A stretch of 64,000 nt of DNA from contig OZ316894.1 in assembly GCA_973895155.1 (NCBI GenBank), forward strand, positions 16,298,699 to 16,362,698, given 5' to 3'. The notes below the pieces were generated by a model. The model saw nothing but the letters and a program-made list of their open reading frames with translations. It was not told where the DNA came from and searched no databases. The first letter of the stretch is position 1; each line of letters opens with the position of its first letter. Positions 5,321 through 33,626 of the stretch are shown here, piece by piece. This stretch comes from Marsupella aquatica (Eukaryota > Plantae > Marchantiophyta). Position numbers and translations under genes: made by a program.

Positions 5321-5690
5321 CCTCCGCTCTTAGCACATCCGCTCGCACCTCTGCTCGCACCTCCGCTCGCACCTCCGCTCGCACCTTCGCTCTCAGCACC
5401 TCCTTTGGCACCTGAGCCGCTCTCAGCACCTCCGCTCGCACCTCCGCTCTCAGCACCTCCTTTGGCACCTGAGCCGCTCTCAGCACCTCCGCTCGCACCT
5501 CCGCTCGCACCTCCGCTCGCACCTCCGCTTGCACCACCTCCTTTGGCACCTGAGCCGCTCTCAGCACCTCTGCTCGCACCGCCACCCAAACTGAAGCTAT
5601 GTAGCAATCCTCAACAGTGTGTGACAGAAGCACTCCACTCCAGCTCCACTCCGCTCGAGCTCCACTCCAGCTGCTCTCCGCTCGTAGCTC
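5321..5690. repeat. GC-rich minisatellite (12-bp CTCCGCTCGCAC units with interspersed CCTCCTTTGGCACCTGAGCCGCTCTCAGCA variants)
   Basis: Direct reading; explains the low-complexity ORFs predicted in several frames. Confidence 0.9.
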
Positions 5691-6799: not shown

Positions 6800-7950
6800 C
6801 CCCTAAACTTGGAGTCATGTATTTTTGAAAGTCTCCCTAAAGTCACAAAGCATAGGGTCTCAAAAGGGGATGTTTTCTTCTAGTGATTAGTTTACCAAGC
6901 CCACAAAGATCTTTCTAGACATTGTGCGCAGTCCCAACTAGTAAACTGCCAGCAACAGGATTCAATACTCTGGCGATGCGCAACTTGGTATGAATGCTAC
7001 TAGTCTTTTTTTGCCAATGGCGGTACTAAAACTCATGAGAATGGACTTTTACCCTAGAAAGCTTGAAATGAATTCCCCTCTAGACTTCCACAAATTCTTA
7101 CCAATCATACATGGTCAAAGATATTTTGGACAGCTCTAGAGTTTCATAAGGAAAGAGTTTCATATATTGGATCTCAAGCCAATGCTATCTATGATCCAAG
7201 ATATAAATTACATGTATTTATGTAGTTTTATTTTCATATCCAAATTCCTCATGGAATCTAATATAGAAGGAAGTTAGTCTCCTTTTCTTCACCTAAGGAG
7301 CGACATTCAAAATATGTCTTGAATGTCTCCATAATCAGTGTCAAAGGGACAATCTCTTCGGCTAAGATATGCAAGAACTAACTTACCTAACTAGTGTATC
7401 ACCATTCCTTATATAATGCCTCAAGCAAGCTAGGATGGTCAAGAGGGAATGAAAACCAAAAACTAACTAAAATAAATATTAAGTATATCCTTGGAAAGAT
7501 GAAAAGACATACCTCTTCATACTCCAAAGAAAACTAATATGTAAAACAAAGTAGAACTAATTAAAACTTGATATAATTAAATGCAAATATAACAATTGAC
7601 TAACATAGACCTGATAAAAAACCAAGTAAATCAAGTCCAAAAAAGTATTTAACTGTGCCAGCAAGTAGATTATACTCCAAAGATCATGCTTGCAAATTTC
7701 CAGCTGAACTAAAGTTTTGGAAGGTTTTCAAATAAATAGAAGCTTTAATGATATCCTTTTGTAAGTCACCAAATGACTTAAATGCAATCAAAAAGCTCCA
7801 AAAAGTTTTGAAAGTTCCTCATTTCACCATTTCTTCCTTTTTTAAGGATTCTTACATATGTGGCATACCACATAGCCCTCCACTCAAACAGCAAAGTGCC
7901 CCCACAAGCTTGAAAACCAATGAAGTGCTAAAGTTGTTCTTTATATTAAT
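6800..7950 (-). mobile_element. Possible highly degenerate DNA-transposase remnant (hAT-like)
   Basis: Only weak, stop-riddled peptide fragments on the minus strand (e.g. KLRIARVLNPVAGS, LITRRKHPL, VCHICK). No TIR identified. Confidence 0.25.
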
Positions 7951-8631: not shown

Positions 8632-9418
8632 CCAAAATTTGGGGACCAAAATAGGTCTGGGGATGGCAGGCCTCCAGAAGCATATATGAGGGGAGTGGTG
8701 TCTCCCTGGGGGCTACGGGCGAGCTGAAATCATGAGCCACGGTGGTCGCGACACTAAGGGAAAATGCCAAACTGAAACGACAATAACTTTCCAACAGAAA
8801 ATCCATTGGAGGACTTCTTGGGTGAGTTGGAAAGCTCTCAAGGAGGACTACATCTTTCTGAGCTCAGTTGGGTCTAGGGATGCCATAAGTTCTTTGGGTT
8901 TGCGGGGGTAATCTTGCCCGCTTGCCAAATCCTGTCGAAACAGCAGCCAAGCTGCATTCAGTCTCCCAAGGAAGCTTGCATTGGGGAGGCTTGCCAAGTA
9001 GGCACGGAGGTTGAGCTCCAAGGGCACTTGGTCCCTAGGCCGTCAATGGGGTGAGAACCGGGAGTTGGTTGCTAGAGTTGGGCCATTTGGGTCCCCACGT
9101 GTTGGGACAAGCTTTAGGACAAGCTACGCTATTTGGGCCAAGATCAAGCATGTCCTGGGGACAAGGCCCAGTCAATTGATGATGCACAGGTACGAGGGGA
9201 AATTTGGGCTGCACCCAAGGAAGAAGTTGTTATGGACGAATAGTGGGTGCCGACTCTGGTTCCGGCTTATGGCATCGAGAGGACCTATTGCTGACCTACT
9301 TAATTACCAATGTCTGTTGAGCTTGAGTTAAGATGTTAGACTTGGGGAGATCTAGGTCCTATTGGGTTACTTACCAAGGTACTTGGTTGCTTGTGCAGAC
9401 AGTGAGGATTGTTGAGCG
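8632..9418 (+). repeat. Dispersed repeat arm A (~790 bp); inverted copy at 10879-11135 + 27362-27871
   Basis: Reverse complement matches: 9340-9418 vs 10879-10960; 9130-9330 vs 10965-11135 and 27362-27390; 8632-9120 vs 27390-27871. Confidence 0.8.
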
Positions 9419-10878: not shown

Positions 10879-11135
10879 CGCTCAATGGTCCTCACAGTCT
10901 GCACAAGCATCCAAGCACTCCGGTAAGTAACCCCAAAAGGATCTAGATCTCTCCAAGTCTAGCATCCTAACTCAAGCTCAACAGACATTGGTAAGTAGGT
11001 TGGTAATAGGTCCTCGCTTGCCATAAGCCGGAACCAAAGCCGACACCCACTGTTTGTACAGAAACAACCTCTCTTTGGGTGCAGTCTGGGATCCCCCTTG
11101 TACCTATCCATCACCAAATGAACGCCTTGCCCCCA
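10879..11135 (-). repeat. Inverted repeat arm B, left part (interrupted by CACTA insertion)
   Basis: Reverse-complement similarity to 9155-9418; continues after the CACTA right TSD. Confidence 0.75.
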
Positions 11136-11159
11136 CACTAGTAGAAACCGGGGGGTATT

Positions 11160-11470
11160 TAGACCCCATTAAACGACTATTCAGTACCGTATAGGACTTG
11201 GAAACGACTGGGAAGGACTCCAGTCCTTTATAGGACTGCGAGTCGTATGTTTTGTTACTATAATCAACTGAGTCCTTTATAGAACTGGTTTATAAGTCGT
11301 TTAATAGACTGGATTTTCAGTCTGTTTTAGTCTTTGTGTGGGTAGCTTTGGTGAGTCGTTTTCAGTCTTTTATGGGCTGAGATGGTGAGTCGTTGGGAAC
11401 GACTAAAAAGGTTATGGAGGGTAGTCTTTAAATATACTTTGTGGGGTATGTATAAGTCTTTCATGTCAAC
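11160..11470. repeat. CACTA subterminal repeat region (AGTC/GACT-core motifs)
   Basis: Dense AAACGACT, GAGTCGT, AGTCTTT and GGACT motifs in both orientations; similar TAGTCTTT motifs at 27200-27330. Typical of TnpA-binding subterminal arrays. Confidence 0.6.
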
Positions 11471-11963
11471 TGGATATGAGTGATGAAGACCCCACTATAC
11501 TACTTGGAATGAACCCACTCTTGTGCACAAATAACATATTGCATTCATGTTTTATTTTGTACTTGGAATGAACTCACTCTATAAGTTCACCATTCATCAT
11601 GTTAACATTAGAATACATAGTTTCAGAAAGCCATCTTCTATACCATGTACACTAATATGAATTCACAGATTCAAACTTCATAGACTACAAAGAAGGTCAC
11701 AAAGTATTCCTCTATACCATACACACTAATACTGAAATGATACAAAACAGATTCAAGTATCATAGACAATCACCATAGAGCCATAGTTTGACATCAATCA
11801 CTTGTTTCATACATGTGAATTGTGTCACATTTTGACATTGCCTTGGAAAGATCCAAGAAATATCTGTACCAATTTTTCCATTTGGTAAAGAGGATGAAGG
11901 AGCCGTTGTGTGTGACATTGATATTTCTGAATTCTGTATGATTCTATCTACACTTGCATTCAG

Positions 11964-14900
11964 TCACTGCAGACTAACACACTCTGATGGCCAGAGCACA
12001 AGAGATCCTACTGCATCTGCAATTATTTCCTGAGGTGGATCATCGTCTCTATTCGGAAATGGCAAATTAAAATCAGATACAATCACTGTAGTCAACAACA
12101 CTACTACATGGTCATCCGGGACCACTTTGCCATGGAATTTTGCATGATCCGGTCGCAAAATGCCTGTACCCACACATACCTGCGAGTCATCCTTCCATGA
12201 TAGAAGATTATGGATTGGCTCTGCTGTGGCTATCACCTCCACCTTACCCTGGCTGTTTTTCTTGGCTTTCCTGGGTGGCTTATACATGACATTATTCATA
12301 CCTTGGTTGCGAGTCATGACTTTGGCACGAGTGTTTTGTGCTGGTGATCGAGAATTGGCTACACTCTTCTTCAAAGAATCTGCATCCATATTTGACACTT
12401 CTGATTGTGTAGCAGGATTTCCCTGCGACATCATCTCAGTATCTGCCAACATTGTACTTGCTTCAATTGAAGCATCTACAATCTTACTTGCATCCAATGT
12501 TGCTCCCAAGTTTCGACGTCGCTTCACCCTGCTCCCACTTGGTTGAGAGTCTGTCAACTCTGCATCAACTACAATTCAGTGTCATGTCCAACATAAGTCA
12601 ATCACTCATCACATGTGCTAAATGTACATGTCACCAACCACAAAGTTGTCACTATCTCCTTACCATTATGAACAGCCTTCTTCCCCTTCTTTGCCATTGC
12701 CATATGCTCCATGTCTGCTTCTGTTGATCAATAAACACACCACAATATTCACGTTGAATCTATTAACCACTGAATTGTTGCTCAACATTCATATAGAGGA
12801 ATTTAAAGCATTAGCTTACCTGATACCTCCTTGGCTATGGTCACTGAGGCACTGGGCACATCTTCTTCATTATTGCTCTTTGAATCACCTGATACATCAA
12901 TCATGATGTCACTTCAGATCCCAGTTCATCCAACCAGTTCTTACAGAAAAGATTACCTCCAACCGGCTTAAGCTTCACAAAACTCCATGCACTTTTCAAA
13001 TGTAATGTACTGGATCATAGCAGGTTACCTGTCTCAGCAACCTTCTTGCCCTTCTGCTTACTGATTACAGGGTCCTTCTCTGCCTCCACTCTTCCTGCAT
13101 TCAAACCATTCACTCAATTCATGAAAACTTACTTCTAACATTTGAACATAGGACACAATGAACAATGGGCCGGTGTCATTTCCATACCTGTGTCAGATTT
13201 GCCAATTCCCTTTTTTGTTAACAAGGGCACACTTTGTACAATGTTGCCCTCATTGTTTGGTTGGGAACCACCCAATTTTTCAATCACAAGCTTGAAATTA
13301 GATTCCACTGATGCAAGAAGGTTCGCTACAGATGCCTCCACAATATCCAAACGATCAGCCAATTTACTTTCCACTCGAGGGAGTCCACACTCTAATGACT
13401 TCAACCGTTCACACATCTCTGTGAGAGTTGTAACAGTTCCCTGTCATAACACAGCTTACATATCTCAGATAACTGTCCCCAAGAACTGGTTGCTTACTTC
13501 CTACTACATTTCTTTCTGATGCTCAAGGCCAAATAGTCACATAACATACAGAATTACAACATAATCACCTGTTTGGAAGTTACACTTGTCACCTCACTCC
13601 TTTGTTTCATGAACTCCTCTCTCACTTCTTGTGCTGATGGTTCTTCACCTGTCAATTTCTTCTGCAGTCCACATCAACATACATATGAATGAAACCAAGT
13701 GTTGATTGTCAATGAAAATGTAATAATGGTAGCAAGATGATAAGTTCGAGGCTTACTATCAGGCATGTCACTGCCTTACCAATTGTTCTTTCACTGGAGC
13801 ATAACTTCCTCTCCCAGCCTGTGAAAGGTGTTTCACTTTGCCTCGAGCATTTGACATCAGTTCACTCTTGCTCTGTCCAGCCTCCGACATGAACCCTTTG
13901 ATTAACCGTGTCCATTGATCCAGTTCCAATGATGGGGGTGGTGGCATTCTCCTGTTAGAACCATTGTCTATCCACATCCTTTTCAACCTATGCCTCTCTT
14001 GTTTCAAAATCCTCATTGCATAATCTGATATGCAATCTTCAACTGGGCCCTTACCATCATTACCAACATACTCCCACCGTTCAAGAATGTCCTTGCAGAT
14101 AGCAGCCCAATCAGCTTTGTTCTGACTCCTAAACTCTGTAATGCTCAAATCTAACCAACGCAATACTTCTCCTCTTAGGTCAGAATGCCAAGGTTCTTAC
14201 CATCACATGTGGGAGTTATCCAACCTTCGGAATTCACTTCTACTTTACCAAATTTGTTACTGTCTCCTGCCTTGGTACTCCCTGAAGCGCTACTAGGTGT
14301 CCCTCCACGGCCTGGTGTCCCCCCACGGCCTGGGGTCCCTCCACGGCCTGATCTCCCCCCACGGCCTGGATTGCATTGTCCAAACCTCCCTGGAGTCCCT
14401 GCACATTTATAGGATCCATTTACAGTCACTTACATTAGGTAAGTATGAATCATAAATCCCGCTGCCAAATATACAGTGGACTTCAGAGCAATTTTGCAAT
14501 GACCAAGTTACCTCTCCCTTGGCGCATAGATGGTTCTGGACCACCTGTCCTATTGCTTTGTCTTGATGAATTAGGGGCGTTTCTCCCGCCTGTGAATGAT
14601 TGCCTCCTATCTGAACGTGGATGGCCTTTGTTGTTTTCGTGATTGTCCCAATCAGAGTCTGCATACCAACAGGTACATGCCACACTCATGGACCTGTAAG
14701 ATAAACTCTTTGCCCTAGCTACACATCAGATAAGTGCATATTGAGCTAAATCTCTACTACCATCACAAAATCACTAGCACAAGGCACTTACTTGTCCAAT
14801 CATCCTCCTCACCTTTCCATTGCCCTCTGTACCCGTCTCTACCACGCTCTGGGTGTTCATATTCATCCCATCCATCTTCTGCTCCATCATAGTCATCATC

Positions 14901-15134
14901 ATAATCATCAGGCGTCCCTTGCCAATAACTCTGGCTCCTTCTAGGGTATGGATTATGTGATTTCTCTCTAGCTGCCCACCTACCTGGGACTTGATGAGGG
15001 CCCTGTGCATCTTGCACAGGTGCATTTTTCTGTGAGCCCCCTGCATCTGGGTCTCCATCCATATCCAATCTTTCCTCTTCACCCCACTCTCCAAGCCCCA
15101 TGTCTGTCTCCATGTCATCACCCTCTTCCCCCAT
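11964..15134 (-). CDS. Multi-exon CACTA TnpA/Ptta-like protein (exon structure approximate)
   Basis: Co-oriented ORF pieces: 14763-15134 (acidic), 14483-14689, 14175-14429 ((GRGGTP)n repeat), 13768-14163 (W..ICK..L.RW; PPP.L..DQW..LI..F.S...Q.KS......R, Ptta/Transposase_24-like), 13135-13416 (coiled coil), 11964-12557 (VGTG...FHGKVVPDDHVVV...LPFP...GSLVLWP, Tnp1-like C-terminal domain). Confidence 0.7.
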
Positions 15135-15311
15135 AGCTTCTGCACAACACCCACAACCAAACAGGGAGAATCAGCACACTAAATTCAAAGTATCAATCAA
15201 TTTCATGCATATCCAACTATCCTAAACATCATTCCAGGCAGCAATTCCCGTTCTGTGACTCTGTGCAGGTAGTCATCCTCAACCTCATACTTGCCAATCG
15301 CCAGCTGTTGC

Positions 15312-18300
15312 CTATTGCAAATCATCAACCTCATCATATTCCATTTGCCCAGGTTCATCATATGTCTCTCTCAATGTTAAGGGGATGTAGTCAGTCCCTG
15401 CCCGAGTTGGAAGTACAGTCTCATGACTAGGATGCTCGAATGCAGCATGGTCATCCAAACTGAACTCTACTTTACTTCCATCCATCCGCCTGTTCCGTGC
15501 TTGGCTATGGCATACCACCCTCCAGCCATGTGACTCCTCCACATCTGCAAAGAAAGCCTGTTCAACTTGGCTAGGGAAAACAAAAGGCTCAGACCATTCT
15601 GGTACTCTGGACCTAAAATTGGCCAACAAGAACCCATCATGATCACGCTTCATGGTAGCCCTTGGTCTCTGCCACTCTGATTTCACCCATGATCCCTTCA
15701 TCAATATCACTGGGACACTTGTGTTACCATAATTCAACACCCAAATGTCGGTCAACTCCCCCACGTAACCCATCTTCATCCACCCCCTCTGTTCTTCAGA
15801 GGTTCTCTGCTCAAACACAGAAATCAAACCACAATCATATGATACACAATGGTCACCCTGCTCATCCCTCACTCGATAATGATTTCCATAAGCTCTCATC
15901 CGTTTGTAGGTCAGAATAGACAATCGTGGTGGCACAGATAGAAGATACAAATCCTTCTCCATATCTGGGTGATGTCTACTATGCTCTCGAATTGTCACCC
16001 GAATCCACTGCTCGAACTGTGGGAAGGGATCCTGCTGCCCAGAGTGTGCAGCTTTTTGCATATCATATTCCCTGCAATATGAGGTACAGGCATAGTTAGG
16101 TCTAAACAACACATGACAACCTAAGATCACCCTTGGAACAGACAAGAAGCATCACAACAAAGGCAAGTCAATTCAATCACTCACCTCCACCATGGTTGCA
16201 TAGGCTCTGTGTTTGCCAGCACATATGAATGAGCCTTGTCTCGAATCGCAACAGGCAGCTGAACAGCACGTCCCACACCTTCAACAACCTTGCCACTCAC
16301 TCCATCATCTTCACCAGATTTCCAAACTCTTGTCATAGCTTCACCAGACCCAGCCATGTACTCTGTTAGGAATCCCAACGTCTCATCCTTAATGTACCCC
16401 AATGCCATGGAAGCCTCTGGCCTGTAGTATGTTCTCACATGACCTTTCAACAACTTCATGTATCGCTCCATAGGGTACATCCATCTGGTACTGACTGGCC
16501 CATACTGCCCTAGCTCTTCTACCACATGGATTAGGGGATGAGTCATAACATCAAAGAAAGCAGGGGGGAAGTATATCTCCAAGTCACAGAGGCCATAAGC
16601 AGCATCCTGCTTCAACTGCTCCAATCCTTGGGGATCCCACACTTTCACACATATACGGGGAAATACATTGCACAGTCGAAGAATGACATTACGGACTGGT
16701 TTCTGCATGAGACCTCTGAGGCATAGGGGCAGAATGTGCTGCATCAACACATGGTAGTCATGTGTTTTCATACTACCAAGTTTATTCTTTGTAATATGCT
16801 TCTTGAAGGCACCAGCATAGCCAGAGGGCACTTTCAGATAGCTCAATCTATACAAGAATGTCTTCCATTCATCCTGTGTGCACACATAGGGAGCTTGGAA
16901 CTTGAGAAGTACATTGGGATTGCTTGCATGGGGCTTCAACCAAAGGTGAGGGCGAATCCCCTTCTGTTGCATATCAGCTCGAACTACTCCTGTATCTTTC
17001 TCACCCGACAAGAACTTCAGCAAGCTCTCACAAATATTTTTCTCAATGTGCATGACGTCCACATTGTGTTTGCTGGGCTCAAATTCCTGCACTCCACAAA
17101 GCAAAGAATTCAACAACAGAAACACTAATTAACCACATAGGAGGATTGTAACCAACATCAATCCACCATTGCTCCAATCTAAAATTGCAATCATACAGGG
17201 GCTGGAGGCTAAGTACATTACCCTCCAGTACTCCAACTCCATCAAGGTCTGTCTTTTCACACCGTGTTTCACCACTGGATCCTCAGGTTCTCGATCAGTG
17301 GCACTTCTCTTGTCCCAATCAGCCTTCCTGGCTGCCCACCTCAGGACTTGCTCTCTGGTGACCCTCTGTGGTGGGCCACGAAGCTCTGTTTTGTTGTTGA
17401 AGTGTGCAATTTGAGACCGTGTGTGCCTGTAAGGATGATCAACAGGCAGATACCTTCTATGCCCCTGAAATTTCATACTGTGCAGGGCATGCGACCACTC
17501 ACTTGTCACATTTTTCCCACATGGTGTGCACCCCACATAGCCCTTTGTCACTCGTCCAGATATGATGCCATGGCCTGGGTAATCTGCTATATCCAGCAAA
17601 CAAATTGCATGCAGTCTAAAGGGGCTGGGTCGAAGAAGCCCCTTCAGAACATCATGGGTTAACACCCCTTCTATCCACAAAGTCTTCCACTCTTCCATTG
17701 TTGGAGCCAACATGATATCTATGAATTGCTCGGTCACAGAAGCTGGTCCAGGGATTAACAGCACCATCATGACAAAAAACCTCTTTGTAGTCATCCATGG
17801 GGGAAGGTTGTAATTTAGCAGCGTAACCGGCCAACATGAATAACGGTTGTTTTTGTCTCCAAATGGGTTTACTCCATCCAGTGATAGACCAAATCTAAAG
17901 TTCCGCTTCTCTGCAGCAAACTGTGGCCACCTCTCATCAACAAATTTCCAATGGTTGGAATCTCCAATGTGATGCTGCAGGCCATCACTGCTCTTGTTAT
18001 CAGGAGTCCATGTCATCAGCTTGGAAATGGCAGGGCATCTAAACAGACGTTGTAGTCTAGGAATGAGAGGAAAATGACGAAGAACCTTGGCAGGGTGTGT
18101 ACATTTCCCTACATTCTTGTACCTGTGCTTACCACAATGAGGGCATGTCAATTTATCTGCATGCTCTTTGCGAAAGAGAACACACCCATCAGGGCATGCG
18201 TCAATAGACACATAGTTCAGCCCAAGGTTAGACATCAATTTCCTAGCCTCGTACATATTTTTTGGAATTGAATTACCATCTGGTAACACATTTCGGCGCA

Positions 18301-19006
18301 GGAAGGTCAACAACTCTGTCACAAATATATTGGGAACATTGTGATTGCCACAGATGTTCAACAACAACACGACAAAACCCAGCTTGGAGCAGTTCAACCC
18401 CTCGTAGATAGGAATGCAAGCTTCTTTGATGTGTTTTGGGCCCCCAAACACCCACTCCCTCTCTGCTGCACCTTCCCCAATGTCAAAGTCAGGTTCAGCT
18501 TGGCCGTCGCCAATGTGTGGCTGCGGTTCATTGTCCTCTTCTGATTCCACTGTGTCGTAAAAAGCATCAAGGTCTTCAAAAATCTCTTGAACCATTCTTG
18601 GGACATCCATCCCACCGTCCTCAGTGACTACCTCTCCATCTCCATCTTGGTCATCCACGTTCTCATGTTGGACCCCAGGACCATCCTCTGCACAGTCTAT
18701 GTCCTGCTCTACGTAGTCTCTACGCCTAGCTGTATTAGAATCCACAAAGTCAGCTCTCCACTCTTCATCAGAGGAGTCTTCTTCTGCTGGTACATTCCAA
18801 ACCCTCCACCGAGGGTGCCTTTCATGCCGCAGCAGGTGAAGGTGCACAGTGTTCAAACTCAACGACTTGAATCCTTGGCACTGTGTGCATGGGCATCTCA
18901 TCCTCCTACTCCTACCTTGGGCGGCCCGGGCTTGTTCACGCATCCACAATTTAGAATCATGATGCCTAATCCTAAATGGGTTGTGAAGAGGCAACCTTGG
19001 AGCCAT
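15312..19006 (-). CDS. CACTA transposase (TnpD/Tnp2-like; Transposase_21 + DUF4218 + DUF4216-like), 3 exons
   Basis: Exons 19006-17222, 17086-16185, 16071-15312 with GT-AG introns 17221-17087 and 16184-16072. Motifs CPCTQC..HL, IDACPDGCVLF, FPLIPRLQRLF, LSLDGVNPF, WPVTLLNYNLPPW, DVMHIEKN, KTHDYHVLMQ, FFDVMTH, RWMYPMERYM, EPFVFPSQVEQAFF. Spliced frame has no stops. Confidence 0.93.
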
Positions 19007-19333
19007 CACTATACACACGCACTCAGCACCCTGTCATTTTATTATGCAAGTGAAAAATACACTTCCTGTTAAGGATTTCACCCCCGACTGTACTTGCCAA
19101 AATACGTAACGTTCCAAAAAAACAAAAAAACAAAAAAATATAGGTGCCTGAGTCATGTACCTATTCTCAAGTGAATGAGACAAAATTCCTAAATGTTTGA
19201 GGGTGTCAACTCCTTCGCTGTCCTCACATGTACTGCCTCTGCACGTACATCCATGACCATATCAGAGTCCAATCATGTATAGTCATAGACACAGGTGCCA
19301 GGTGCGAGACCGGTGTGAGATGTCCTCATCTTA

Positions 19334-19867
19334 CTACCACATCAAATACGGATACCAATCCTGTTGTCGATGCCACTCAGCCCTGAGGTACTCAGGCATG
19401 TACATTAAGTCATCAAGGTCTAAACCCTGCTCATGCCATGGTGGTCTTCGATCCGTGCCTACAAGCAGTGGCAGCAGTGCCCTCCATGGTGCACATGTTG
19501 CTACCAAGTCCCTCCACTGGGTACTAATTAGTCTATATTTGCAGATATCTTGTGCGCCAGACACCACAAGAACCCTCGGCCAGACATGTGTAAGAACTAT
19601 ATCATCTGCCAAATCAGGCAACAAGGAACCACCTACAGCATCGTGCTTGTCTAACTCATCTGCTGAAAAGTAAATGTCCTCTTCCGACTGTGCATCCTCA
19701 TTCACCACAGCATTCACAACACATCCAAGGTCTGCAGGCATTATCTCGGATGGAGCTACACTCTGTCTGGTTACCAATCCACACAAGTAAGCCCAAGCAG
19801 TAGCCATGCACGATGCAACCCGTAGGAGGACCCTACATAGGGCCTGACGGTCTGGAAGAGGCAGCAT
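19334..19867 (-). CDS. F-box-like protein carried by the CACTA
   Basis: Motif LLPDLADDIVLTHVWPRV...ICKYRLISTQWRDLV matches the F-box consensus (LPDLP.DI...I..RL......R.VS..WR.L). Likely ATG 19867. Confidence 0.65.
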   Translation of the reverse strand: MLPLPDRQALCRVLLRVASCMATAWAYLCGLVTRQSVAPSEIMPADLGCVVNAVVNEDAQSEEDIYFSADELDKHDAVGGSLLPDLADDIVLTHVWPRVLVVSGAQDICKYRLISTQWRDLVATCAPWRALLPLLVGTDRRPPWHEQGLDLDDLMYMPEYLRAEWHRQQDWYPYLMW

Positions 19868-20043
19868 ACCCACCAAAGTCTTCAGCCAAACAGAGCCCAG
19901 CAAGTAGATTCACAGTCACACCCCACGCAGCAGGAAACAACAATCACTTCAACTGCGACCAACCATGACAAGATGAGTTAGTTCAAGGATCACATTTATT
20001 ACAAAATTGTGATTTATACAAAAATATGAGGGACTCCTACTCC

Positions 20044-20892
20044 TCACTCTCTCCCACCTTTGCTAAGCATACATCTCCGCTGAATCTTGGAGGGCCAGGC
20101 CTCAAAAATATCAAAGTCCCAAGCATTCTGTCGCTTCCCTCTAGCTGCTGATTCCAGAAGCCAATCAGGGGAAAGCACCCAAAGATTGTTGTTCATGACA
20201 AAATCACGCACTGTTGTCTTAAAGAATTTTCTGCATATTTTCATGTATGACAGACCTACAACATGAGTGGAGGTTTCTGTTAGACTCTCCTCCACTGTCC
20301 CACCTAGCTCAACAACTATAGACTTGTACAATCTGCACTTAGTCTCCCCAATTCCTTCTTCTGCAAATACCACACTGAACCCCTTCATAATGGTATTTCT
20401 CTCCTTGCCATGCTCATTCAATATAGCATCTGCACGCATAGGATGGTGTCCTATGTTGACAACAGGTCCATATTGGACAGAAGCAAAGTTGGGTTTCTCT
20501 GCCGCTGCTTCATAGGCTTCCTTTTCAGCCAAAGCCTCTACAGTGGCCTCCTCACTCTCCCACAACTCATATTGCTCAGTACTCTGTACACACCTATGTT
20601 TAACAGAATCGGTCAGCCAAGAGACTTCAACTACTTTTAGACCTTGGTTGGTAATGGCAGAATCAATGAAGGACCATGACCACTTGTTCATCACATCCAG
20701 CCATGTCCCCGCAACAACATGTGTAGTCTGTGGAGTGATGTCCTTGACTTCAGTCCCATGGAACTCTGAGAATCGTTTTTGTACGATTGGCCAACTCACT
20801 TGGGTGAACCCATAGTGGCCAGGAATCAAAATGGCTTTGATTCCAGCCAACAGAGGCGGGTGGTCAACCTTTGTACGTTTCCTAGAGGCCAT
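20044..20892 (-). CDS. Tandem BRCT-domain protein carried by the CACTA
   Basis: Two repeats: LAGIKAIL...FHGTEVKDITPQTTHVVA...KVVEVSWLTDSV...EQY and MKGFSVVF...LGGTVEESLTETSTHVVG...VLSPDWLLES...DF (GG, THVV and W..DS/ES BRCT hallmarks). N-terminal RKRTK NLS-like motif; CAG acceptor at 20917-20915. Confidence 0.8.
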   Translation of the reverse strand: MASRKRTKVDHPPLLAGIKAILIPGHYGFTQVSWPIVQKRFSEFHGTEVKDITPQTTHVVAGTWLDVMNKWSWSFIDSAITNQGLKVVEVSWLTDSVKHRCVQSTEQYELWESEEATVEALAEKEAYEAAAEKPNFASVQYGPVVNIGHHPMRADAILNEHGKERNTIMKGFSVVFAEEGIGETKCRLYKSIVVELGGTVEESLTETSTHVVGLSYMKICRKFFKTTVRDFVMNNNLWVLSPDWLLESAARGKRQNAWDFDIFEAWPSKIQRRCMLSKGGRE

Positions 20893-21490
20893 GTACACAC
20901 GGGCCACCTAATCACTGCAGACCGGAAGATAATGCGTTCACCTGATAATCGGAGGGCCCTTAAAATGCTGCGTTTATAACTTGGTCCAGTCCAGTCGTCT
21001 GGTGAGTCTCTGCTCCGATTCCAAACGGGAAAAATATTGGGACAAACGTACTAGACACCTGCAAGCATGCACCTCATAGTTTGAATATGTGCCTTCACAA
21101 TATTGAAGGTGACAAGTGCAATTGTTTTGTGATGCCACATACAGATGTTGTAAATGGGCAGACATTCAATGAGAATACAAAATGTTGGTACACTTTAAGG
21201 GAATTCTCGCAAATTAAATAGCCTTGTAACTTATATGCTCATAATGAGAAGTCCTGATTTAATTTAAGCAGTGTCATGTAAGTCGTGATCAAAATGATTG
21301 CAGAGTTAAAAAAGTTCCTAGAAGGCTTAAGGGGAGTTTTTGAAGGCATGTACCCAGGAACAAGTAATGAACTTAGGGTACTTGTTGCCTAAGCATCCTC
21401 TCCTACAGAGGTCCTTCTTCTCAAAATTGGAATGTCTGCAATCTCCAAGGTATCCACATCAGGTGCACTATGCATGTACATTATTCAGGT

Positions 21491-22171
21491 TCAAAGCCAA
21501 GAAATGTGATCTCTCATGGGAGTGTGCAAAGTAGGATCTATGGCATGGCGATGACAATAGAAGATCCATCGATCAACACCATGTGTAGAGTGATCATAGA
21601 TGTGTCTGTCACAAGCATAGCCTTCTGCTTGACGCTCCTTCAAACAATGAAAGTGCCACATGGTGGGACACCTAACACAGTGGACTATGTCCACCCAGAA
21701 ATCTTCATCGTGCTGACCACATGCCTTGCACTTATGAAGTGGGCAAGCTGTGGCAAGATCGGGCAAACATGAAAAACAAAAGAACCTCACACAATATCTG
21801 TCAGGGCATTTCCTAACAAGTGGTGGAGCATCAACAGAGCCCTCATAAGACCCCAACTTCCCACACTGTGCACACTTAGCCTGCTTCTCCAAACAATCAG
21901 TGCACATCCAGCCTCCCTGGTGTGCTGACGGGAGGCCCACCCCTGGACAGTTGTTTTCTGCAGCAAGGTCAGACTCCGGGTTGAGGTGGAAATGCCTCAT
22001 GCAAGGGCCCTCACATATGGCTAAGCCACCACCATCGTCACAAATGGCACAACAATGAGCTGCCTTCTGGAAAATCTGACTTGCAGAGAAGTTACTACCA
22101 TCTGGCCCAACTACACCTGTGTTGCTCACCTCTGTCCCCCGCTTCTTGGCTCGGATTTTAGGGCGTGCCAT
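21491..22171 (-). CDS. Stand-alone EDM2-like composite PHD-finger protein (copy 2), transposon-borne
   Basis: 226 aa, same length as copy 1, about 34 substitutions by manual count (~85% identity), all Cys retained. TAG acceptor at 22176-22174. Confidence 0.85.
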   Translation of the reverse strand: MARPKIRAKKRGTEVSNTGVVGPDGSNFSASQIFQKAAHCCAICDDGGGLAICEGPCMRHFHLNPESDLAAENNCPGVGLPSAHQGGWMCTDCLEKQAKCAQCGKLGSYEGSVDAPPLVRKCPDRYCVRFFCFSCLPDLATACPLHKCKACGQHDEDFWVDIVHCVRCPTMWHFHCLKERQAEGYACDRHIYDHSTHGVDRWIFYCHRHAIDPTLHTPMRDHISWL

Positions 22172-22840
22172 GCCTACGCATGAGACAGATAGTACAATTT
22201 AGCAGAGTGCACAGACAATACAATTTAGTGCAGTGTACAAAAAGTACAGTGTAGCATATAGACTAGAGTGGCAATTGCTACTGCAATGAAATGTTCACAC
22301 ACATGTGCAGAGTAGACATACTTTTTGGTTTGTTGAGCCCACACTAAAAACTGATCCCCTCGTACAATAGCTCCACCTACACCTCAATTTTGTGGCTATG
22401 ATTCACCAAAGGAGATCTGCAACAAGATTTAATGCATTTGAATCACATATAACAGTCGTGACATGTAAAACAGGCATTTTTTGAACAGGATTGGTATCAA
22501 GCACTGTGATCAGGGTTGTAATTTATACATCCTAAATAGGCTATGATAGTGAATGAGACAAATAAGTTAGGCAGAAATCACTTTTTCCAGGTTATCACAT
22601 GGCCCATTAATTCCAGTCTTTGAAAGGAGACTTTTAAGTGAGCTTGCTAGCCTCTTAAATTAGGATATTGTACTTAGTGCAGCCATAATAGGATAAGTTA
22701 TGTACTGTTGACCCTAAACCTTGGACCCAAAATTGGTCATAATTCAAAATCTTAAGTAAATATCCTCTCTGTTCAAGTCAAAGTGTTAAGTTATAGGTCA
22801 ATGGTCTCTGGTTTGTGCATGCGGTGTGACAAGTGGTCCT

Positions 22841-23290
22841 CTAGAGCGTGTGATCCAAACATGTGTAGACACCAAAGTGACCGGTGGTGGGGTCTGGGAG
22901 GGCAGGACAAGTGACATCGCCAGGCACACTGCAGGATGGCGAGTGGTTCCAGATGATACATTGTGCTCTGTGAAAAAACCGACATCCAAGAGAACGGTCA
23001 TCCAACTCTAGGCCAGAAGCCCTACAGGCAGGACAGTCATATTGGCAACTGTGCACACACCCTTGGGCCCTAATTTGTGGCGGGTCATGTACTAGAGACA
23101 GAAATACCAAGGATGTTGGGAAGGGTGGAGAAGCAGGTACAGGCCGGCTGTAGTTGTTCCTGGCAACAACTGGGTACTCAAAGTACCATGCAGACTGGGC
23201 TGGAAGGATCCCAAGTCTGACATACTCAAGGTGCAACATCTCTGCCTTGCGTGCAAGCCGCACATGTTCAGCGTTGCGGGTCCTCACCAT
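22841..23290 (-). CDS. Small Cys/His-rich hypothetical protein (possible Zn-binding)
   Basis: 149 aa; CVHSCQYDCPAC and HRAQCIIWNHSPSC..CP...H...CLDH; N-terminus conserved with copy 1. Confidence 0.5.
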   Translation of the reverse strand: MVRTRNAEHVRLARKAEMLHLEYVRLGILPAQSAWYFEYPVVARNNYSRPVPASPPFPTSLVFLSLVHDPPQIRAQGCVHSCQYDCPACRASGLELDDRSLGCRFFHRAQCIIWNHSPSCSVPGDVTCPALPDPTTGHFGVYTCLDHTL

Positions 23291-26200
23291 AAGTGTTGCT
23301 TTTGTGGAGATGTCGTGTGTTCACGTCCTCTGATAAGCACCTTCGATCAGCAAGGTGAGCAGGAGCTGTACTTGCCTCACCAACAGCAACCAACCTTAAA
23401 TTATCAGTTCCCACTCACTGTGTCATTCCATTGGTTCCAGCTAGGGGTCACAGTGTAAACATAGCATGAAACACTCCTAATCAACTTGCTTACAAACTAT
23501 AATATCCAGAAAGAGTGAAAGTCTCACCCTCCAGTGAGCAGCAGAGAGGTAGTTCAGTAGATGTGTTGATGTGCAGTTAAACCTCCACTATTGCTTACTT
23601 CTGGTGTATGCTGCTCAGAAGAAGACATATTAGTAGCAGCAAATTGCAAATAATGGCCATAAGCAAACCGTGAGAGTTTGCAGAATGCTACGACAAATCC
23701 ATCACAGCAGTGCTCCACAGGAATGAAACCAAGCAAAATTTGGTGACCTCGGCCAATGACAAGGCCAATGTAGTGAACAATCCTTGACCGATCAGGATAT
23801 GGATTGGAATTACAATTAGTCAGCTCTTCTTCTTTGTTTTCTAACTCTGGGGGAAATGAGCATGACCAGGGAATTCTCTGAGAAATAGAAGAATCGCTAA
23901 GTACAGTATTCTTAAGAGTAGTTTTGTTCTAATTCTGAAATCTACACATAGGACATTTATCATCTAAACTGAAGATCCATTTGACAACTCCATGATAGCC
24001 TATTCCGCATTGTGTCCGCCCCATGCAAGCAAGGGGTATTCATCCGAGCTTAGTCTAACCATGAATGATTGTTCTGGAAGCAATTGCGACAATGTTTTGG
24101 TTTTTTTCTCCTATCCAACTCAATAGCTCACAAACATGGCATTGGACCCATTAACAAATTATACTTGCCATCATTCTCAACTGTATTACATGGCCCACAC
24201 TGCTGACATCCCTGACTCTTAAGGGAAACTCATCTCCTGGGCCAACAACATCTCAGATTCTACAAAAATGAGAAACTGTGAAAACTTCTTGATCTCCTAT
24301 CCTGTGATTGTAGCATGTATGATTTGCTGGGACTGCAGGCAGTTCTGGACCTTGCTGCGCTTTATATACAACAACAACCTGAGCTCCATGAATTTGTTTT
24401 TAATAGACGTGCGTTTGACCACGGCTACAACTCCAAAACAATCACCAAATCAAATCATAACAAAACCCACTCGAAAGCTGAACACTAGAACATTGGGAAC
24501 ACACTCAAACAGGTTCTGCAAGGATGGCTCTATGTCGGATCGGCTAGAGAATCAGGCAGGCTTCCTATTATGGTCTGCTCAGAGCCTTCCACTCTGGATT
24601 AGACTCTGAATCCAAATGCGAGTCTACGCTTTCCGTTGCTGGTCACAACGACGGGCAATCAGGATGATGCCATGCCGAGTAGAAGAACAAGAAAGCATTC
24701 CATAAAAGGCACTGAGATGAACCGTATAGTAAAAGTGGTAGTACTTCCGGTAGCACGACCGACCCGCTATGTGACAGTCCGAAGAAAAGCTAAAAGGCTG
24801 AAAGGCGATAGATTTTGTGCTCAATGTGACAGGTTTTTTGAAATGATCAAGCCAAGGTGCAAAGGAAAACTGATTGAAGGTGACATGGGAAAGTTGTCAA
24901 TGCAAGAGAAACTCTTGCCTTAGAGTAACCGTGTAACCAGGTAACAATGCAGGAGAAACTCTTGCCTTAGAGTGCTCGACGCTCCTTCAGCTGGATAGGG
25001 GCAGCTCCAACTACACGGTCTAGTCCAATCACCGCCTGCTTTGTTACAAGAAGGTGGACTAAGCCACAGCTGACGTCAATCACACTGTAAAAAATGGACA
25101 GATGAGCCATGTCACGAAAGCATATATAGTCATTCCTCAATATTAAATGAGACTATGAGAGGGCATATATAAGTTCACGACTAGGAAAGAGTCTCACCTT
25201 GTAGCACGGAGATTCTCAAAGCGCACCAAGATGAGTCATTGTAGCAGGTGAATGTTGGGCGGTGTCATGTAAGGCGCAAATCAATAGCTCGCTACCTCCT
25301 GTCTCCCCGTCTGTCTCCCGTGCACTTCTGCCTCCCCGTCCGGCTTCCCGTCTGTCTCCCACGTACTTAAATTGAAGTTTTAACAAAAACTGTCAACACC
25401 AAGTGCAGCAAATGCCAACATATTCACACGGCAGAGCATAAAAGTAGTCACAGTTCATGAATCAGTTCCCTATCGAATCATGGGCACTACGCTGAGCACT
25501 GCGCAAGAGACTAGGATAGACACTGCAAACATGGGGACTTTTGTTTGGCAAGAAATCTGGACATCAAACCTTCAGCAATGGCAATAGGAAGCATTACATC
25601 AAACGAGAGGACATCAAATGAGCAGTCCGGTTATAGGCAAACGGCGACTAACATAGCGGAGGGAAAAAATGCGCATTGACATAGCGGACATGCGCACATT
25701 GACATAGCGGAGGGGAGAAAAACTACAAAGCCAACTAACCTTTTTAAGGCCCACAATTTCAAGGGGAGGGACAAAGAGAGCAAGCACTCCAATCTCTTCA
25801 ATCCCTTCTGCAAGTAGCCGCCAAAATCTACTTCTTGGGGTCCAGCCCACGGATGGAGATCATGCAAGGTGGTCAATCACAGTAAGTGCAATCGTTGCAA
25901 TCCACAAACAAGCTGCAAATGAAGACACGCAGGAGGGAAAGTCCGCAACACCAACAACATTACCCTTTGTAAAACCCCGAGCTTATCTTCTAGTTGCCAA
26001 CGCTCAAACAAAACCTGCTCGGACACTACCAAAACCCTAATTCCATAAGCTCTCACCTTTGCGACACAACTCCTGCACTATATTCAGCTGGCGTTGGCCC
26101 ACTCTAAGCTCCCAAGCTTCACTTTAGTCCGCGCCGCGACTAAAGTTTCACTGCCTCTGTGAGCTTCGCAGTCCACCTTACAGATCGAACAAAGCAATCA

Positions 26201-27361
26201 CCTCCCTTCACATCTGCACTAATCACCTTTCGCAAAGAGTTGCAATCACCTTCCGCAATACCAGGAAGCTTGCTCCCTCTCGTTCAATGCCTTCTGCAGC
26301 ATGAGCGATCACCTCTGCCGAAGCAACTTCAATCGAACACACAGCAACGGGGCGGGCAGCGACAACATTGACAGTGAACGATGGACTCTACTCAAACAAC
26401 CTCAAAGCTGTCACAAAAGAACAAGGAAACATTGAGGCAGAAAACAAAGTCCCTAGCGCCAGGCAACCAAAGTATCGGGAAACCAAAGGATCGGGACCAA
26501 AGGAAGGGATGACATGCCATTCCAACAACGGGAAGGGGGAACGGGACGCGGGAACGGGCAATTTTTTGATGGTGGGGATGGATGCCAACGATCCAATGGT
26601 CCCTAAACCCCCATCCCCTTAACATGCAACCCCCGACCCTTCACATCAAACCCCCCCTTAACCCCCTTTAGTGAAAACCCAGCCACCCCCTAGCCTTGAC
26701 ATATAAACCCCCTAATGTGCTTAGGACAACTCGACTGTGGCCACACTATGTTTGCAATGCCAGGGTCATCCATTTAGAGCGCCGCTTGCAAGCTTTGGCT
26801 CTCAAGATCCTCCCAAGGCAGCAAACAAGTTAGGGTTCACGGTCCATGTTCCTTTACCCTAAACCGTTGCGTCACTATTTCAATCGAGTGTTCTTCGGCT
26901 GGACGTGCCCCTTTACTGACCCACACCCCCTTGAGACCGGTACAAATCTACCTTTGTGCATCTCGGCCTTTTATAGATGGATTTAGTAATGGCCAAGAAT
27001 ATGTTGACCATCCCTCTGTAGTCCACCCTCCATGAACCTCACTTCATTAAACCCAAAATCTTTTTGGTCACAAAATAAGGCCATTTAATGAGTTATGCCC
27101 CTTGCTATCACCCTCTTTATAGAATTACCCCTCCTCAGCATAAGTGGTCATTACCCATGATGTGCTAGACTATTCATCCTTCACAAAGTAGCAAGGTTAC
27201 TTTTCATAGTCTTTTAGTGAACCATAAAACACTAATAGTCTTTTGTAGTCTTCAACAAAACCGGTGCAATGGGTATGAGTTGTTTTAAGTATGGAAAAAG
27301 GACTTAGTGGGCTTAGTCCTATAAGGTATGGTCTAAATTGCCCCGGTTTCTACTAGTGCCA

Positions 27362-27871
27362 AGACATGCTTATGGCCCAAATAGCGTAACTTGTCACAAA
27401 GCTTGTTCCAACACGCCGGGACCAAAATAGTACGGTCCCGACTCTAGACCAACTCCCAGTTCTCACCCCACTGATGGCCTAGGGGCCAAGCGCACTTGGA
27501 AATCAGCCTCCATGCCTCCTTGGCCTTGTCTCCCCAGTGCAAGTTCCCTTGGGAGACTGAACGCGGCTTGGCTGCTCTTTTGGCATGATTTGGCAAGCGC
27601 ACGCAAACCCTAAGAACCCATGGCACCCCTAGACCCGGTTGAGCTCAAGCAAATGTAGTCCTCCTTGAGAGATTTCCAATGCACCCAATAAGTCCTCCAA
27701 TGGACTTCTCATTGGGAAGTTATTGTCGTTTCCATTTGGCAATTTCTCTAGCCGCGAACGCCGTGGCTCACGACTTTGGCTCGCCCTTAGCCCCTAAGGA
27801 TACACCTCTCCCCTCATATATGTTTCTAGAGACCTGCCACCCCCAGACCTACTTTGGTCCCCAAATTTTGG
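27362..27871 (-). repeat. Inverted repeat arm B, right part
   Basis: Reverse complement of 8632-9150; the ORF track shows the same peptide (MDF.L.SYCRF.LA..PLPSYM.LE.CHPQTYFGPQIL) on opposite strands. Confidence 0.8.
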
Positions 27872-30156: not shown

Positions 30157-31140
30157 ATGGCGAGCACTCGAAGCAAAAATTATATGGAAACTGAGTTGAA
30201 GCAACTATGTTACAGCATAGTGCATGATTTGCAAGATCCTGTCATTGGAACTGGATAGAGAGCTGAGAAATTTTGGGGCCAAGTAGCAGAGCATTACCAT
30301 AAGAACAATGGTCGGGAATTTGAGACCAAGGGGAAGAAATCACTTGAAGGCAAGTGGTCTGACATCAAGCACGATGTCCAGAAATTTATAGGAGCATACC
30401 AACAAGTTGATAGCAGACAGGCTTCAGGAACAAATGCTGAAGGCACCTTCAAATTTGCCAAGGAGCTGTACAAGGAGAATCATCCAAAGAAAAAGAATTT
30501 TAGTTTTGATTGTTGTTACTACACTCTGAAGGATTGCCCGAGGTTTATGAATCCAGAGATCGACATGCCAAAAGGGAAGAGCAGGAAATCTAACAGGAAT
30601 GCACCCTACAACAACATCCCCATTGCAAAGGTGGTTGAACTTTATTCAGACAATTCTTTGGAAAAAATGGGGATGACACTCCAATCAAGTTTCAAGGCAA
30701 AAAGGGCCAAGAGGAAATTGAGTTGCAAAGGATGAGCTCAAGAGAAGGAAGAGCCATGATGATGCATTGAAGATGTCAACATTGGCACAGAACGAAATGG
30801 CAACTTCCAATACTCTTGCATACCAGAACAACTCAACTTTGGCTATGCTTTCATTGCCTACAAAGGACATGAGTCCAGAAATGCTCAAGGTATGGGAGGA
30901 TTGGAAATTGGCCGAATCTATTAAATTGATTCAGAGGGTGTCACAGCAAAATGCGTCAGTGGCACGTAATGTTGGGCCAACCTCCATACCTGCCAACAAT
31001 GCAAGTGTGGAACCTCCAATTCAAGTGGAGACACCTCTGCCTGAATCACCAGCTCCAACTCCAGTGTCCACCAAGGATCCTTCAGATGATCTTGAAGCAT
31101 GGCTTGCACAGGAAGTAGATCCATTTACAGGTGCAGAAGG
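30157..31140 (+). pseudogene. Harbinger Myb/SANT-like DNA-binding protein (NAM-associated type), disrupted
   Basis: MASTRSKNY..TELKQLC.S......DPVIGTG*RAEKFWGQVAEHY...KSLEGKWSDIKHDVQKF...F.FDCCY..LKDCPRF; in-frame stop at 30256-30258 and later frameshift. Confidence 0.8.
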
Positions 31141-32323
31141 TGCAAACAATTTTGTAATTTGGATAATTTGGATTATTGAAATAAAAAACCTGTTGTTTGT
31201 AATTCAGTATTGTGCACGTTTCTTTCAATAGGTCATTTTGCATAGACAGTCCAATTCAATCAGGGTTGCACTATTCAATCCCATTCAATTGTGTAATGCA
31301 CATTCAAACACATTCAGACAACCATAAAGCCACAAACAGTACTTCACTTCGAATCAAAATTTCCATTGGCAAAAAGTGCCAGGCCAAGTAGTCCATGGCA
31401 TCATAGTTACAAGCTCACAGAATGAGCAAACTGTGATTGTTGTAATAAAACCCTAAAGCACACTACATTATGTCAAAGTTGGTTTGTACTTGAAAACTGA
31501 AACCAAGAACCAAAAAAAAAACGTGGAACTACGAGAGTTATGAACAAAAAAAACTAGGATATGCAATCCTAGTACCAATATTAGTCCCCAACCATCTCAT
31601 CATCCGACTCCTCTACAAGCGCAGCCTTCCCATCCTTCAGCTGAGTCTGCTCCAATGCAGCAGAGCGAGAGTTTGAAGAGTCCTCCTTTGAAGCCTTTGT
31701 GGTCACGTCCACACTAGCTAAGTTCTCCACCTGCTTCTCCATAGCCTTGCCTTTCGCCACCTCCCCCACAGCTTTGCTCTTCTTTGGCTCCTCCATGCTC
31801 TCTGCTGTGGGCATCAAGTCCATTCCTGGCCCTTAAAATCAACAGGGCCAGGTGCTTGAATTGCACCTCCATTCTCTCATCTTCAGGTCATACAACGTGA
31901 GCTCTTTGCTCTTCTCCTTCTCCATGACAGTCTGCTCCTTACCCTTTCTCAATTTCTTTGTGGGAGGCATGATGCAAAGACTAATTGACCTGTGGTCAGG
32001 GAGCGAATGCAACACTGAAGATTGAGAGCTTGGGCGAAGGAAGAAGGAAGTGTGAGCTTCAATTCCTGAGTCCTCACTGAAATTGTGAAAATGCGAAAGC
32101 CCTAAAAACGCAGAAGGGGTGCCCACGAAGAAAGAGCAAGCTCGAAGATAGGACCAGCCCAACCTCCAACGCCTCTGCCCTGCACGAACCGTGGGAAGCA
32201 TTTGTGAGAAGTGTGTACAATGATTCTACCAAGTGTGTGAGCAAAATTGCACAAAGTGTGCAAGCAAATTGTACAAAGTGCACAAAATAAGTGTGACATA
32301 GACTTAAATAACTGACCCGAATA

Positions 32324-33626
32324 TCAATTTCCATAGCCTGACCCCTTTGAATTCCATAAATGGTCCACAAGGTCATTTCTTAGCTTGAAATGGGACCGTT
32401 TGTCACGAATTTCCCTGGTAGCTTCTAACAATTGCGACCATGGCATCAAGCCTCTTCTCACTGGTGGTGGACAAATAACAAAGTATGGAGTGAAGTTCTC
32501 ATCTCTCTCATCCTCCAGAATCATGTTGTCCATTAAAATGTTTGTGAGGTTAGCCACAAACCAAGACCGTGCAGGTCTTTTTATAATTTCAAATTTGGCT
32601 TGCAAAACTCCAAAAGCCCTCTCCACATCTTTCCTAGCAGCTTCTTGGCATTTAGCAAAGTGCTTCAATTTTTTTGACTGTGGTACATGCACAGTTGAAA
32701 TAAACATAGACCACTCAGGGTATATACCATCAACCAACAAGTAGGCTTGATTGTATTGTACTCCATTGACTTGAAATGAGACCTTGCCAAACTCATTTGC
32801 CAACCACTCATTCAGACGTGGAGACCTATCTAGAACATTGATGTCATTGTTTCCTCCAGTTAGGCCAAAAAAAGCATGCCAAATTCAGAGCTCTTGATCA
32901 GCAAATGCCTCTAAAATGTGGAACTTTGCTTTGTCCTTGTCTTGGTATTGACCCTGCCAAGCCGCCACAGGGCAGTTTTTCCACTCCCAGTGCATGCAGT
33001 CCAAGGACCCAAACATCCCAAGAAACCCTCTTTGTTCATTTATTCCAAGATTTCTTTTCCAATCCTCCCCTGTTGGCTTTCTCAAATATATTGGTTCGTA
33101 CAATTGTCTGATAGCCCTCACAAACCTTTACAGAGACTCTAGTACTGTGGTTTCAGCAATCCTACAATATTCATCTATCGCATTTGCCCCTATACCATAT
33201 GCAAGTTATGTGAGAGTTGCAGTAATTTTCTGATGAGGAGAAAGATAAGGTTGTCTAGTTGCATCAAATTTTAATTGAAAATAATTGTCATGTGCACATA
33301 CTGCTGGGAGAATTTTATTGAATAACCTAGAACTCATACTGTACCTCCTTCTAAATTTTGAGCTCATCATATGTAGGATTCTCAGCAAAGTAGTCATTCC
33401 ATAGATTCTCCGCACCTTTGCCTCTCCTCCTGTCCACATTTGGAGCTTTGCCTGGCCTGGACCCTCCATGCTTTCTCTTTCTTGATGCTCCTTGTACAAT
33501 GGATTGGATTGACAATTCTCCACTGAACAAAATCTGTCCCCAGAAATTGTGCTCCTCTTCCCAGACTTGTTCATCTTCCTCTATCATCTTGAACAAATTG
33601 TCCCTCCATGTTTTTGTGGCAGCCAT
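32324..33626 (-). pseudogene. Harbinger DDE transposase (Plant_tran-like), frameshifted
   Basis: Fragments LWNDYF.ENPTY, FRRRY.MS..LF, LSPHQKITA, GMFGSLDCMHWEWKNCP, ILEA.AD, YLLVDGIYPEW, QEAARKDVERAFGVLQAKF, LRNDLVDHLW spread across frames. Confidence 0.9.

Follow-up and report, generated by a model that had tools for sequence, protein, structure and literature searches.

A complete CACTA transposon of 16,223 bp lies in the genome of the liverwort Marsupella aquatica, within a stretch of 64,000 nucleotides that is here called the window (assembly GCA_973895155.1, contig OZ316894.1, positions 16,298,699 to 16,362,698 of the forward strand; all positions below are counted from its first letter). 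The element spans 11136-27358 and carries, upstream of its transposase, four whole open reading frames (ORFs), which encode an F-box-like protein, a protein with two BRCT repeats, a stand-alone EDM2-type multi-PHD zinc module and a Cys/His-rich protein. The PHD gene is under purifying selection, and the relatives of the genes support the idea that the PHD, BRCT and F-box-like genes, at the least, have been maintained and are not recent debris; that the four form a single system is a proposal. Our reading, which is tentative and which we would place slightly short of an even balance, is that this is a CACTA element with old, selectively maintained accessory genes, whose PHD protein would act as a chromatin decoy and not as a reader in the manner of EDM2.

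The assignment to CACTA, already made in a preliminary description of this DNA, is borne out by the ends of the element, by the target duplication and by the order of the TnpD domains. The 18 outermost bases, starting CACTA, are identical at both ends, forming terminal inverted repeats at 11136-11153 (plus strand, the 3′ end of the element) and at 27341-27358 (minus strand, its 5′ end), and CCA is present on each flank as a 3-bp target-site duplication (11133-11135 on the left and 27359-27361 on the right, neither with a strand), the repeats and the duplication enclosing the four ORFs as had been described. The subterminal zone next to the 11136 end is rich in GACT/AGTC, with 18 per 400 bp vs a window mean of 2.9. 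When the element and one CCA are cut out and the empty site is thus rebuilt, a foldback arm matches the opposite arm over 796 columns at 80%; the arm that the CACTA element interrupts belongs to an older foldback element. The latter occupies 8632-9418 and 10879-11135 plus 27359-27871, with arms of ~790 bp that are 80% alike, one of which is split by the insertion.

The transposase gene is of the TnpD type and lies on the minus strand at 15312-19006, in a model of three exons with GT-AG borders and inferred splice sites; with these sites so chosen, the predicted introns at 17221-17087 and 16184-16072 give a stop-free frame of 1,148 amino acids. Its domains follow the order Transpos_assoc, Transposase_21 (E 2e-58), DUF4218 (E 2e-25) and DUF4216 (E 1.5e-5, under the cut-off). 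A TnpA-like gene region at 11964-15170, also on the minus strand, is marked by a weak Transposase_24 match at 13768-14196 (E 0.002-0.006, under the cut-off).

The four ORFs are intact, each running from ATG to stop without a break on the minus strand, the same as that of the transposase: the F-box-like gene at 19334-19867 (177 amino acids), the two-BRCT gene at 20044-20892 (282), the PHD gene at 21491-22171 (226) and the Cys/His-rich gene at 22841-23290 (149, of no known family). Their uninterrupted, same-strand arrangement between transposase and terminal repeat had been pointed out before and the coordinates agree with it, the word intronless, which was then applied to them, being understood as a statement about open reading frames only. 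The region 19007-23400 contains four ATG-to-stop ORFs of at least 149 amino acids on the minus strand and none on the plus strand, and among 1000 dinucleotide resamples 983 contained no such ORF and the maximum was 2, which puts the observed four above chance. The observed/expected ratio of CpG is 0.25-0.38 in the four ORFs and 0.24-0.33 in the transposase, while two host gene regions give 0.68 and 0.84; the low CpG of the four ORFs, matching that of the transposase, is what a long stay in methylated DNA would be expected to leave.

Three of the genes have stand-alone relatives of comparable length: 5 of 92 candidates for the PHD gene (38-81% identity), 1 of 656 for the BRCT gene (61%) and 3 of 100 for the F-box-like gene (51-55%); the Cys/His gene is backed solely by a second copy within the window. 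This copy, diverged (81% DNA identity) and comprising the PHD and Cys/His part, extends on the minus strand over 8-2611 and passes the window start; its PHD ORF is intact at 365-1045. A CACTA-like end at 6872-6885 (minus strand) is a candidate for the 5′ terminus of the element holding it, the partner end falling outside the window. The two copies keep gene order and spacer, and in the PHD gene their 226 codons differ with a synonymous divergence (dS) of 0.277 and a non-synonymous divergence (dN) of 0.081, that is, a dN/dS of 0.29 (bootstrap 0.17-0.50), with 0 indels in 226 codons vs 7-9 gap events per non-coding segment. The selection signal stays significant when transitions are given more weight (p 1.5e-4 at kappa 2, 0.007 at kappa 10), and the copies are separated by roughly as many transitions as transversions. 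In the Cys/His gene the ratio is 0.35 (0.13-0.91) over 143 codons, with 6 gapped codons left out. The dN/dS comparison proposed in the preliminary description thus gives, for the two window copies, a clear outcome for the PHD gene, intact in both, and a weak one for the Cys/His gene, frameshifted in one; its view of the cassette as maintained and not random debris holds for the PHD, BRCT and F-box-like genes at least, on account of the stand-alone relatives and of the PHD ratio.

The spacer between the Cys/His and PHD genes (22172-22840 vs 1046-1817) has no long frame; it may hold a regulatory or RNA element, or may have undergone conversion. Between the second copy and the CACTA-like end at 6885 there is a fragment similar to the 3′ exon of ribosomal protein L18a (3265-3606, plus strand, PF01775, E 4e-13), which looks like a captured or decayed host piece, and, inside the possible second element, a tandem array of 12-15-bp repeats at 5305-5595 with long open frames in several readings.

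The PHD protein consists of a flexible N-terminal tail followed by a zinc module at ~residues 36-226. The EDM2/NSD-type nature of this module, and with it the EDM2-type origin that had been suggested earlier, is firmly supported by the profile search, the tree and the fold, even though every Pfam match falls below its cut-off. The profile search gave 563 proteins at E <=0.001, and among the 150 of them listed the short stand-alone forms rank top and the long EDM2-type proteins next, with liverwort proteins among the best-scoring long relatives; these, and a MurA/EPSP-synthase-family gene in the window, would point by themselves to a host among the non-flowering plants. From an alignment of 72 fetched proteins and the two window copies a quick, midpoint-rooted tree of 73 rows was made (one short row was dropped), in which all 15 rows labelled stand-alone lie on the same side of a long branch that has a value of 100 in the Shimodaira-Hasegawa-like approximate likelihood ratio test (SH-aLRT). 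The structure model has a predicted local distance difference test (pLDDT) score of 86.8, with residues 1-23 below 50, and fold searches lead with middling scores to PZP and NSD PHD-C5HCH tandems (in Foldseek a best E of 2.5e-5 with a low TM-score; in VIA a Z of 5.2, root-mean-square deviation 2.6, 75 aligned). Near-identity to host exons had been named beforehand as the sign of recent passive capture; the PHD gene, for which this is best covered, stands on a long stem and its protein is ~27-39% identical to host-type proteins, which, with its dN/dS of 0.29, does not fit a host fragment captured recently and decaying without constraint.

The zinc-ligand positions of the module are shared with the 58 host-type rows, and the stand-alone clade differs from these in three respects. 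One zinc ligand, His in 56/58 host-type rows, is Cys in 15/16 stand-alone rows; the ~20-residue insert of the host-type module is missing; and in the first finger, the only one to which this count applies, an Asp or Glu 2-4 residues ahead of the first Cys occurs in 56/58 host-type rows vs 0/14 stand-alone rows, two of the 16 having been left out because the region is absent in them. An acidic cluster before the first Cys is the mark of PHD readers of unmodified H3K4 (PMC3241642). Its disappearance in the transposon clade means that the reading specificity of EDM2 is not simply transferable, and the earlier claim that this protein reads histone marks as EDM2 does loses its footing. Short EDM2-PHD proteins also exist within the host clade (L001, L003-L007; P0031, P0036, P0055), where they branch apart from the transposon clade; P0031 is from a grass, and P0031, P0036 and P0055 begin Met-Ala-Arg-x-Lys, so that stand-alone PHD modules with such a start may have arisen twice.

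The N-terminus of the PHD protein, a feature absent from the preliminary description, resembles that of histone H3: codons 2-11 (22139-22168, minus strand) have Ala1, Arg2, Lys4, Ala7 and Lys9 in H3 register. The comparison was made with positions 1-4 and 7-10 of H3, as given in PMC6028506, over the 17 of 21 family rows with an ungapped N-terminus, in which Ala1 is kept in 10 rows, Arg2 in 16, Lys4 in all 17, Ala7 in 10 and Lys9 in 12; position 7 is Ala or Ser in 14/17, and position 8 is Arg in 2/17 and Lys in 9/17. The window protein agrees with H3 at 5/8 positions (shuffle p 0.0004 with a pool of 25 residues and 0.0066 with one of 10), the family reaches 69 matches in register vs 20 at most in each of ten other registers, and nine Lys/Arg-rich control N-termini show 0-3 of the 8 positions. 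The tail is itself Lys/Arg-rich, and columns 11-27 of the family alignment are mostly variable. With the 22-residue N-terminus as query, no match was found among solved structures. The motif appears to be conserved in register beyond what composition would give, in a test that is post hoc and made on related rows, and we would rate the chance of a working H3 mimic as somewhat under even.

The BRCT protein begins with a basic stretch and contains two BRCT stretches (PF00533, E 6e-14), which are 24% identical to each other (E 4e-7) and separated by a linker of ~60 residues; profiles of the F-box-like and BRCT families show no similarity. Its structure model, from three sequences, is unreliable (pLDDT 32.6), and the best match among solved structures is DNA ligase 4 (E 0.005), with TdT at E 0.19. 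It may also resemble the BRCT of plant polymerase lambda. The phosphoserine pocket of tandem BRCT domains is formed by S/T-G in the β1-α1 loop and S/T-x-K at α2 (PMC10386641), and a motif search found neither in either repeat of the 3/3 sequences. The absence of these motifs, together with the long linker, leaves the phosphopeptide binding that had been expected of this pair unsupported.

In the F-box-like protein a variable hydrophobic N-terminus precedes the motif (~residues 87-133) and a conserved tail of 44 residues; family conservation peaks in motif and tail, the latter having 27-29 identical residues of 41-43. The F-box match is weak in the window protein (E 0.1, 13 bits vs a Pfam cut-off of 20.5) and is present in 3/4 family members, with a best E of 0.0011; the Atlas F-box cluster scores 0.91 with 82/256 features, which is a low shared-feature count. 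The tail C-terminal to the motif contains no known substrate domain. Degradation of a host defence factor by way of this protein, as once envisaged, is unsupported, given a borderline F-box, a stretch of just ~44 residues after it and the lack of any pointer to a target. For the Cys/His ORF there is no family match in Pfam and no Atlas match, and the protein probably binds metal. Among the domain labels first given to the cassette, those of the BRCT and PHD proteins are firm, that of the F-box is weak and the Cys/His protein belongs to no known family.

If the PHD protein is a decoy, the removal of its Met would leave a tail offering Ala1-Arg2-x-Lys4...Lys9 to host readers or writers of the H3 tail, and the candidate targets would include the host EDM2-type PHDs in which the acidic cluster is retained; the zinc module would keep the tail at the partners of EDM2 or at chromatin. 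EDM2 binds chromatin marked by H3K9me2 and favours the formation of full-length transcripts (PMC7529245), and the effect of the decoy could be weaker silencing, or more full-length transcripts of the element, this being a step under EDM2 control. More weakly, it may be supposed that the BRCT pair serves, at breaks that the transposase makes, as an adaptor independent of phosphate, and that the F-box-like protein binds SKP1, whether to act as an adaptor whose target module is very small or to act as a sponge. The most complete version of these ideas, in which the element would have long carried a counter-silencing kit of host parts, that is, an EDM2-derived PHD module minus the acidic cluster and plus an H3 mimic, accompanied by an adaptor for break repair and a protein that binds SCF, we regard as doubtful.

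A number of observations weigh against the decoy and against the long maintenance of the cassette as a whole. In the tail, Thr3 is kept in only 2/17 rows and Ser10 in 0/17, no Met stands immediately ahead of the motif in 6/17, and the likeness to H3 was spotted by eye before testing, in rows that are related. Liverwort host EDM2-like proteins also begin Met-Ala-Arg, Lys4 is also found in three short host-clade forms, and among 144 other fetched proteins used as controls 2 reach 5/8 positions (one Marchantia cluster) and 5 reach 4/8; part of the motif may in consequence be inherited, or be a basic import signal. As for the cassette, the link of the relatives to transposons is unproven, given that they are mostly on short contigs without genomic context and could be host genes; several stand-alone relatives are truncated or frameshifted; and synteny is seen only for two genes in two copies, both within the window. 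The Cys/His ORF of the second copy, from 2251, is broken by a frameshifting 16-nt deletion, which the preliminary description had not recorded, and the selection signal of this gene becomes marginal once transitions are weighted (p 0.037 at kappa 2, 0.067 at kappa 4). The divergence of the non-coding spacer (0.134) is lower than the synonymous divergence of the PHD gene (0.277), which is puzzling, and the L18a exon beside the second copy suggests that passive capture also occurs here.

The main rival to the histone-tail decoy is a nuclear-localisation signal, for which the Lys/Arg-rich tail, the loss of Thr3 and Ser10 and the rows without a Met directly before the motif would all be natural; the fixed N-terminal register, with Lys4 in 17/17 and Ala/Ser7 in 14/17 rows, and the low scores of the Lys/Arg-rich controls (0-3/8) argue against it. 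Extended to the whole cassette, with the accessory genes maintained and not forming one anti-silencing system, and the tail an import signal that has drifted into resemblance with H3, an explanation to which the basic beginning of the BRCT protein and the broken Cys/His gene in 1/2 copies could be added, we consider it quite improbable. The PHD protein could, on the other hand, be a targeting or activating subunit similar to RAG2, which would tether the transposase to a chromatin state and steer insertion, its basic tail being self-regulatory or an import signal. RAG2 and RAG2-like transposon proteins do specify chromatin sites by their PHD (10.1101/2023.08.20.553239), all the zinc-ligand positions are kept, the fold matches histone-reading PHD tandems, and the element has inserted within the arm of another repeat; however, the acidic cluster is lost and a single insertion site is uninformative on preference, and we hold this to be unlikely. 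Finally, the ORFs could be Pack-type cargo, that is, copies of small host genes whose selection reflects an earlier or parallel existence in the host and which are useless to the transposon. CACTA elements do pick up pieces of genes on the upstream side of their transposase (PMC8978399), the L18a exon adjoins the second copy, the relatives lack genomic context and short host-clade EDM2-PHD proteins exist. Yet the ORFs are whole and not fragments, their CpG depletion is the same as that of the transposase, the two copies have diverged keeping order and spacer, with selection on the PHD gene, the clusters of the relatives (7+4 PHD, 1 BRCT, 3 F-box) are named at most 'hypothetical protein', and many relatives look decayed, as transposon copies do; we hold cargo to be improbable.

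The element shares with CACTA/En-Spm transposons the CACTA ends, the 3-bp duplication, the TnpD domain order, followed by a putative Transposase_24 region, and the extra sequence upstream of the transposase. Variants of this superfamily carry Peptidase_C48/ULP1 or captured fragments (PMC8978399), and red-algal En/Spm elements of 16-20 kb have 4-5 ORFs (PMC6431247); here, in contrast, there are four whole ORFs (PHD, BRCT, F-box-like and Cys/His), three of them with old stand-alone relatives. The term 'PHD' has 0 occurrences in the main text of PMC8978399, as have PHD, BRCT and F-box in that of the Arabidopsis transposon-product atlas (PMC13547354). With EDM2 and EDM2-like proteins (PMC7529245, PMC3632883) the cassette protein has in common the multi-PHD zinc module, including the C-terminal motif, and the conserved ligand positions; it differs in being the module only (226 amino acids vs ~700-1,600), without the N-terminal DNMT1-RFD region, with the acidic cluster lost, the His to Cys ligand change and the ~20-residue insert deleted, and with an H3-like tail containing Lys4.

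VANC and KIU of the VANDAL Mutator elements and TnpA of Spm are likewise transposon-borne accessory genes, proposed or shown to counter silencing, KIU having a captured host domain, and they act by sequence-specific DNA binding and demethylation (PMC5735166; PMC13317346; 10.64898/2026.08.24.746577); the ULP1-bearing VANC/KIU genes are a precedent for extra domains on transposons. Unlike these cases, the cassette has no visible homology to them, and a counter-silencing role would here be read from sequence. The RAGL transposons also combine cut-and-paste transposition with a second gene that has a PHD (10.1101/2023.08.20.553239), although they belong to another superfamily and the PHD of RAG2, a reader of methylated H3K4, sits within a transposase subunit, whereas the present module is EDM2-derived and stand-alone. 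The histone mimics influenza NS1 and G9a share with the PHD protein a short H3-like motif in a non-histone protein (PMC6028506), which in our case is N-terminal, follows the H3 register over positions 1-9, belongs to a transposon protein and is known from sequence alone. In a literature search whose scope lay outside supplements, repeat libraries and most subscription journals, none of the top matches listed described a CACTA element that carries an EDM2-type PHD, BRCT or F-box gene, or a histone mimic encoded by a transposon; an element of this kind could be recorded in supplements or repeat-library entries of bryophyte or fern genome papers.

The known counter-silencing proteins encoded by transposons are few, and those in the sources covered, VANC and TnpA, act through DNA motifs. 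If the decoy were real, a second strategy would have to be added, that of chromatin mimicry at the protein level by an EDM2-derived module with an H3-like tail, and a transposon would encode a histone mimic, as viruses have been described to do. Should the mimicry not hold up, the locus still documents whole PHD, BRCT and F-box-like accessory genes kept by a CACTA element.

Scanning metagenomes with the PHD alignment yielded 221 stretches and, from these, 9 loci, all host-type EDM2 or other PHD genes (26-46% identity), in which nothing matched the other cassette genes or the transposase. Scans of viral contigs gave 0 for the terminal-repeat pattern, 0/70 stretches for the F-box and 0/95 for the BRCT, and the one PHD match there, among 18 stretches, was rejected because it lay antisense, by chance, in a contig resembling that of a phage.

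Elsewhere in the window there are a PIF/Harbinger-like element at 30259-33580, in which a Plant_tran transposase (E 4e-48) is paired with a NAM-associated ORF in convergent orientation, and a Copia-type long terminal repeat (LTR) retrotransposon at 58353-62650, whose LTRs are ~93% alike and in which a stop separates the integrase and reverse transcriptase frames. Exons of host genes were recognized for a TCP-1 chaperonin (41209-42632), a member of the EPSP-synthase/MurA family (49903-52539) and a MaoC-like dehydratase (56463-57089).

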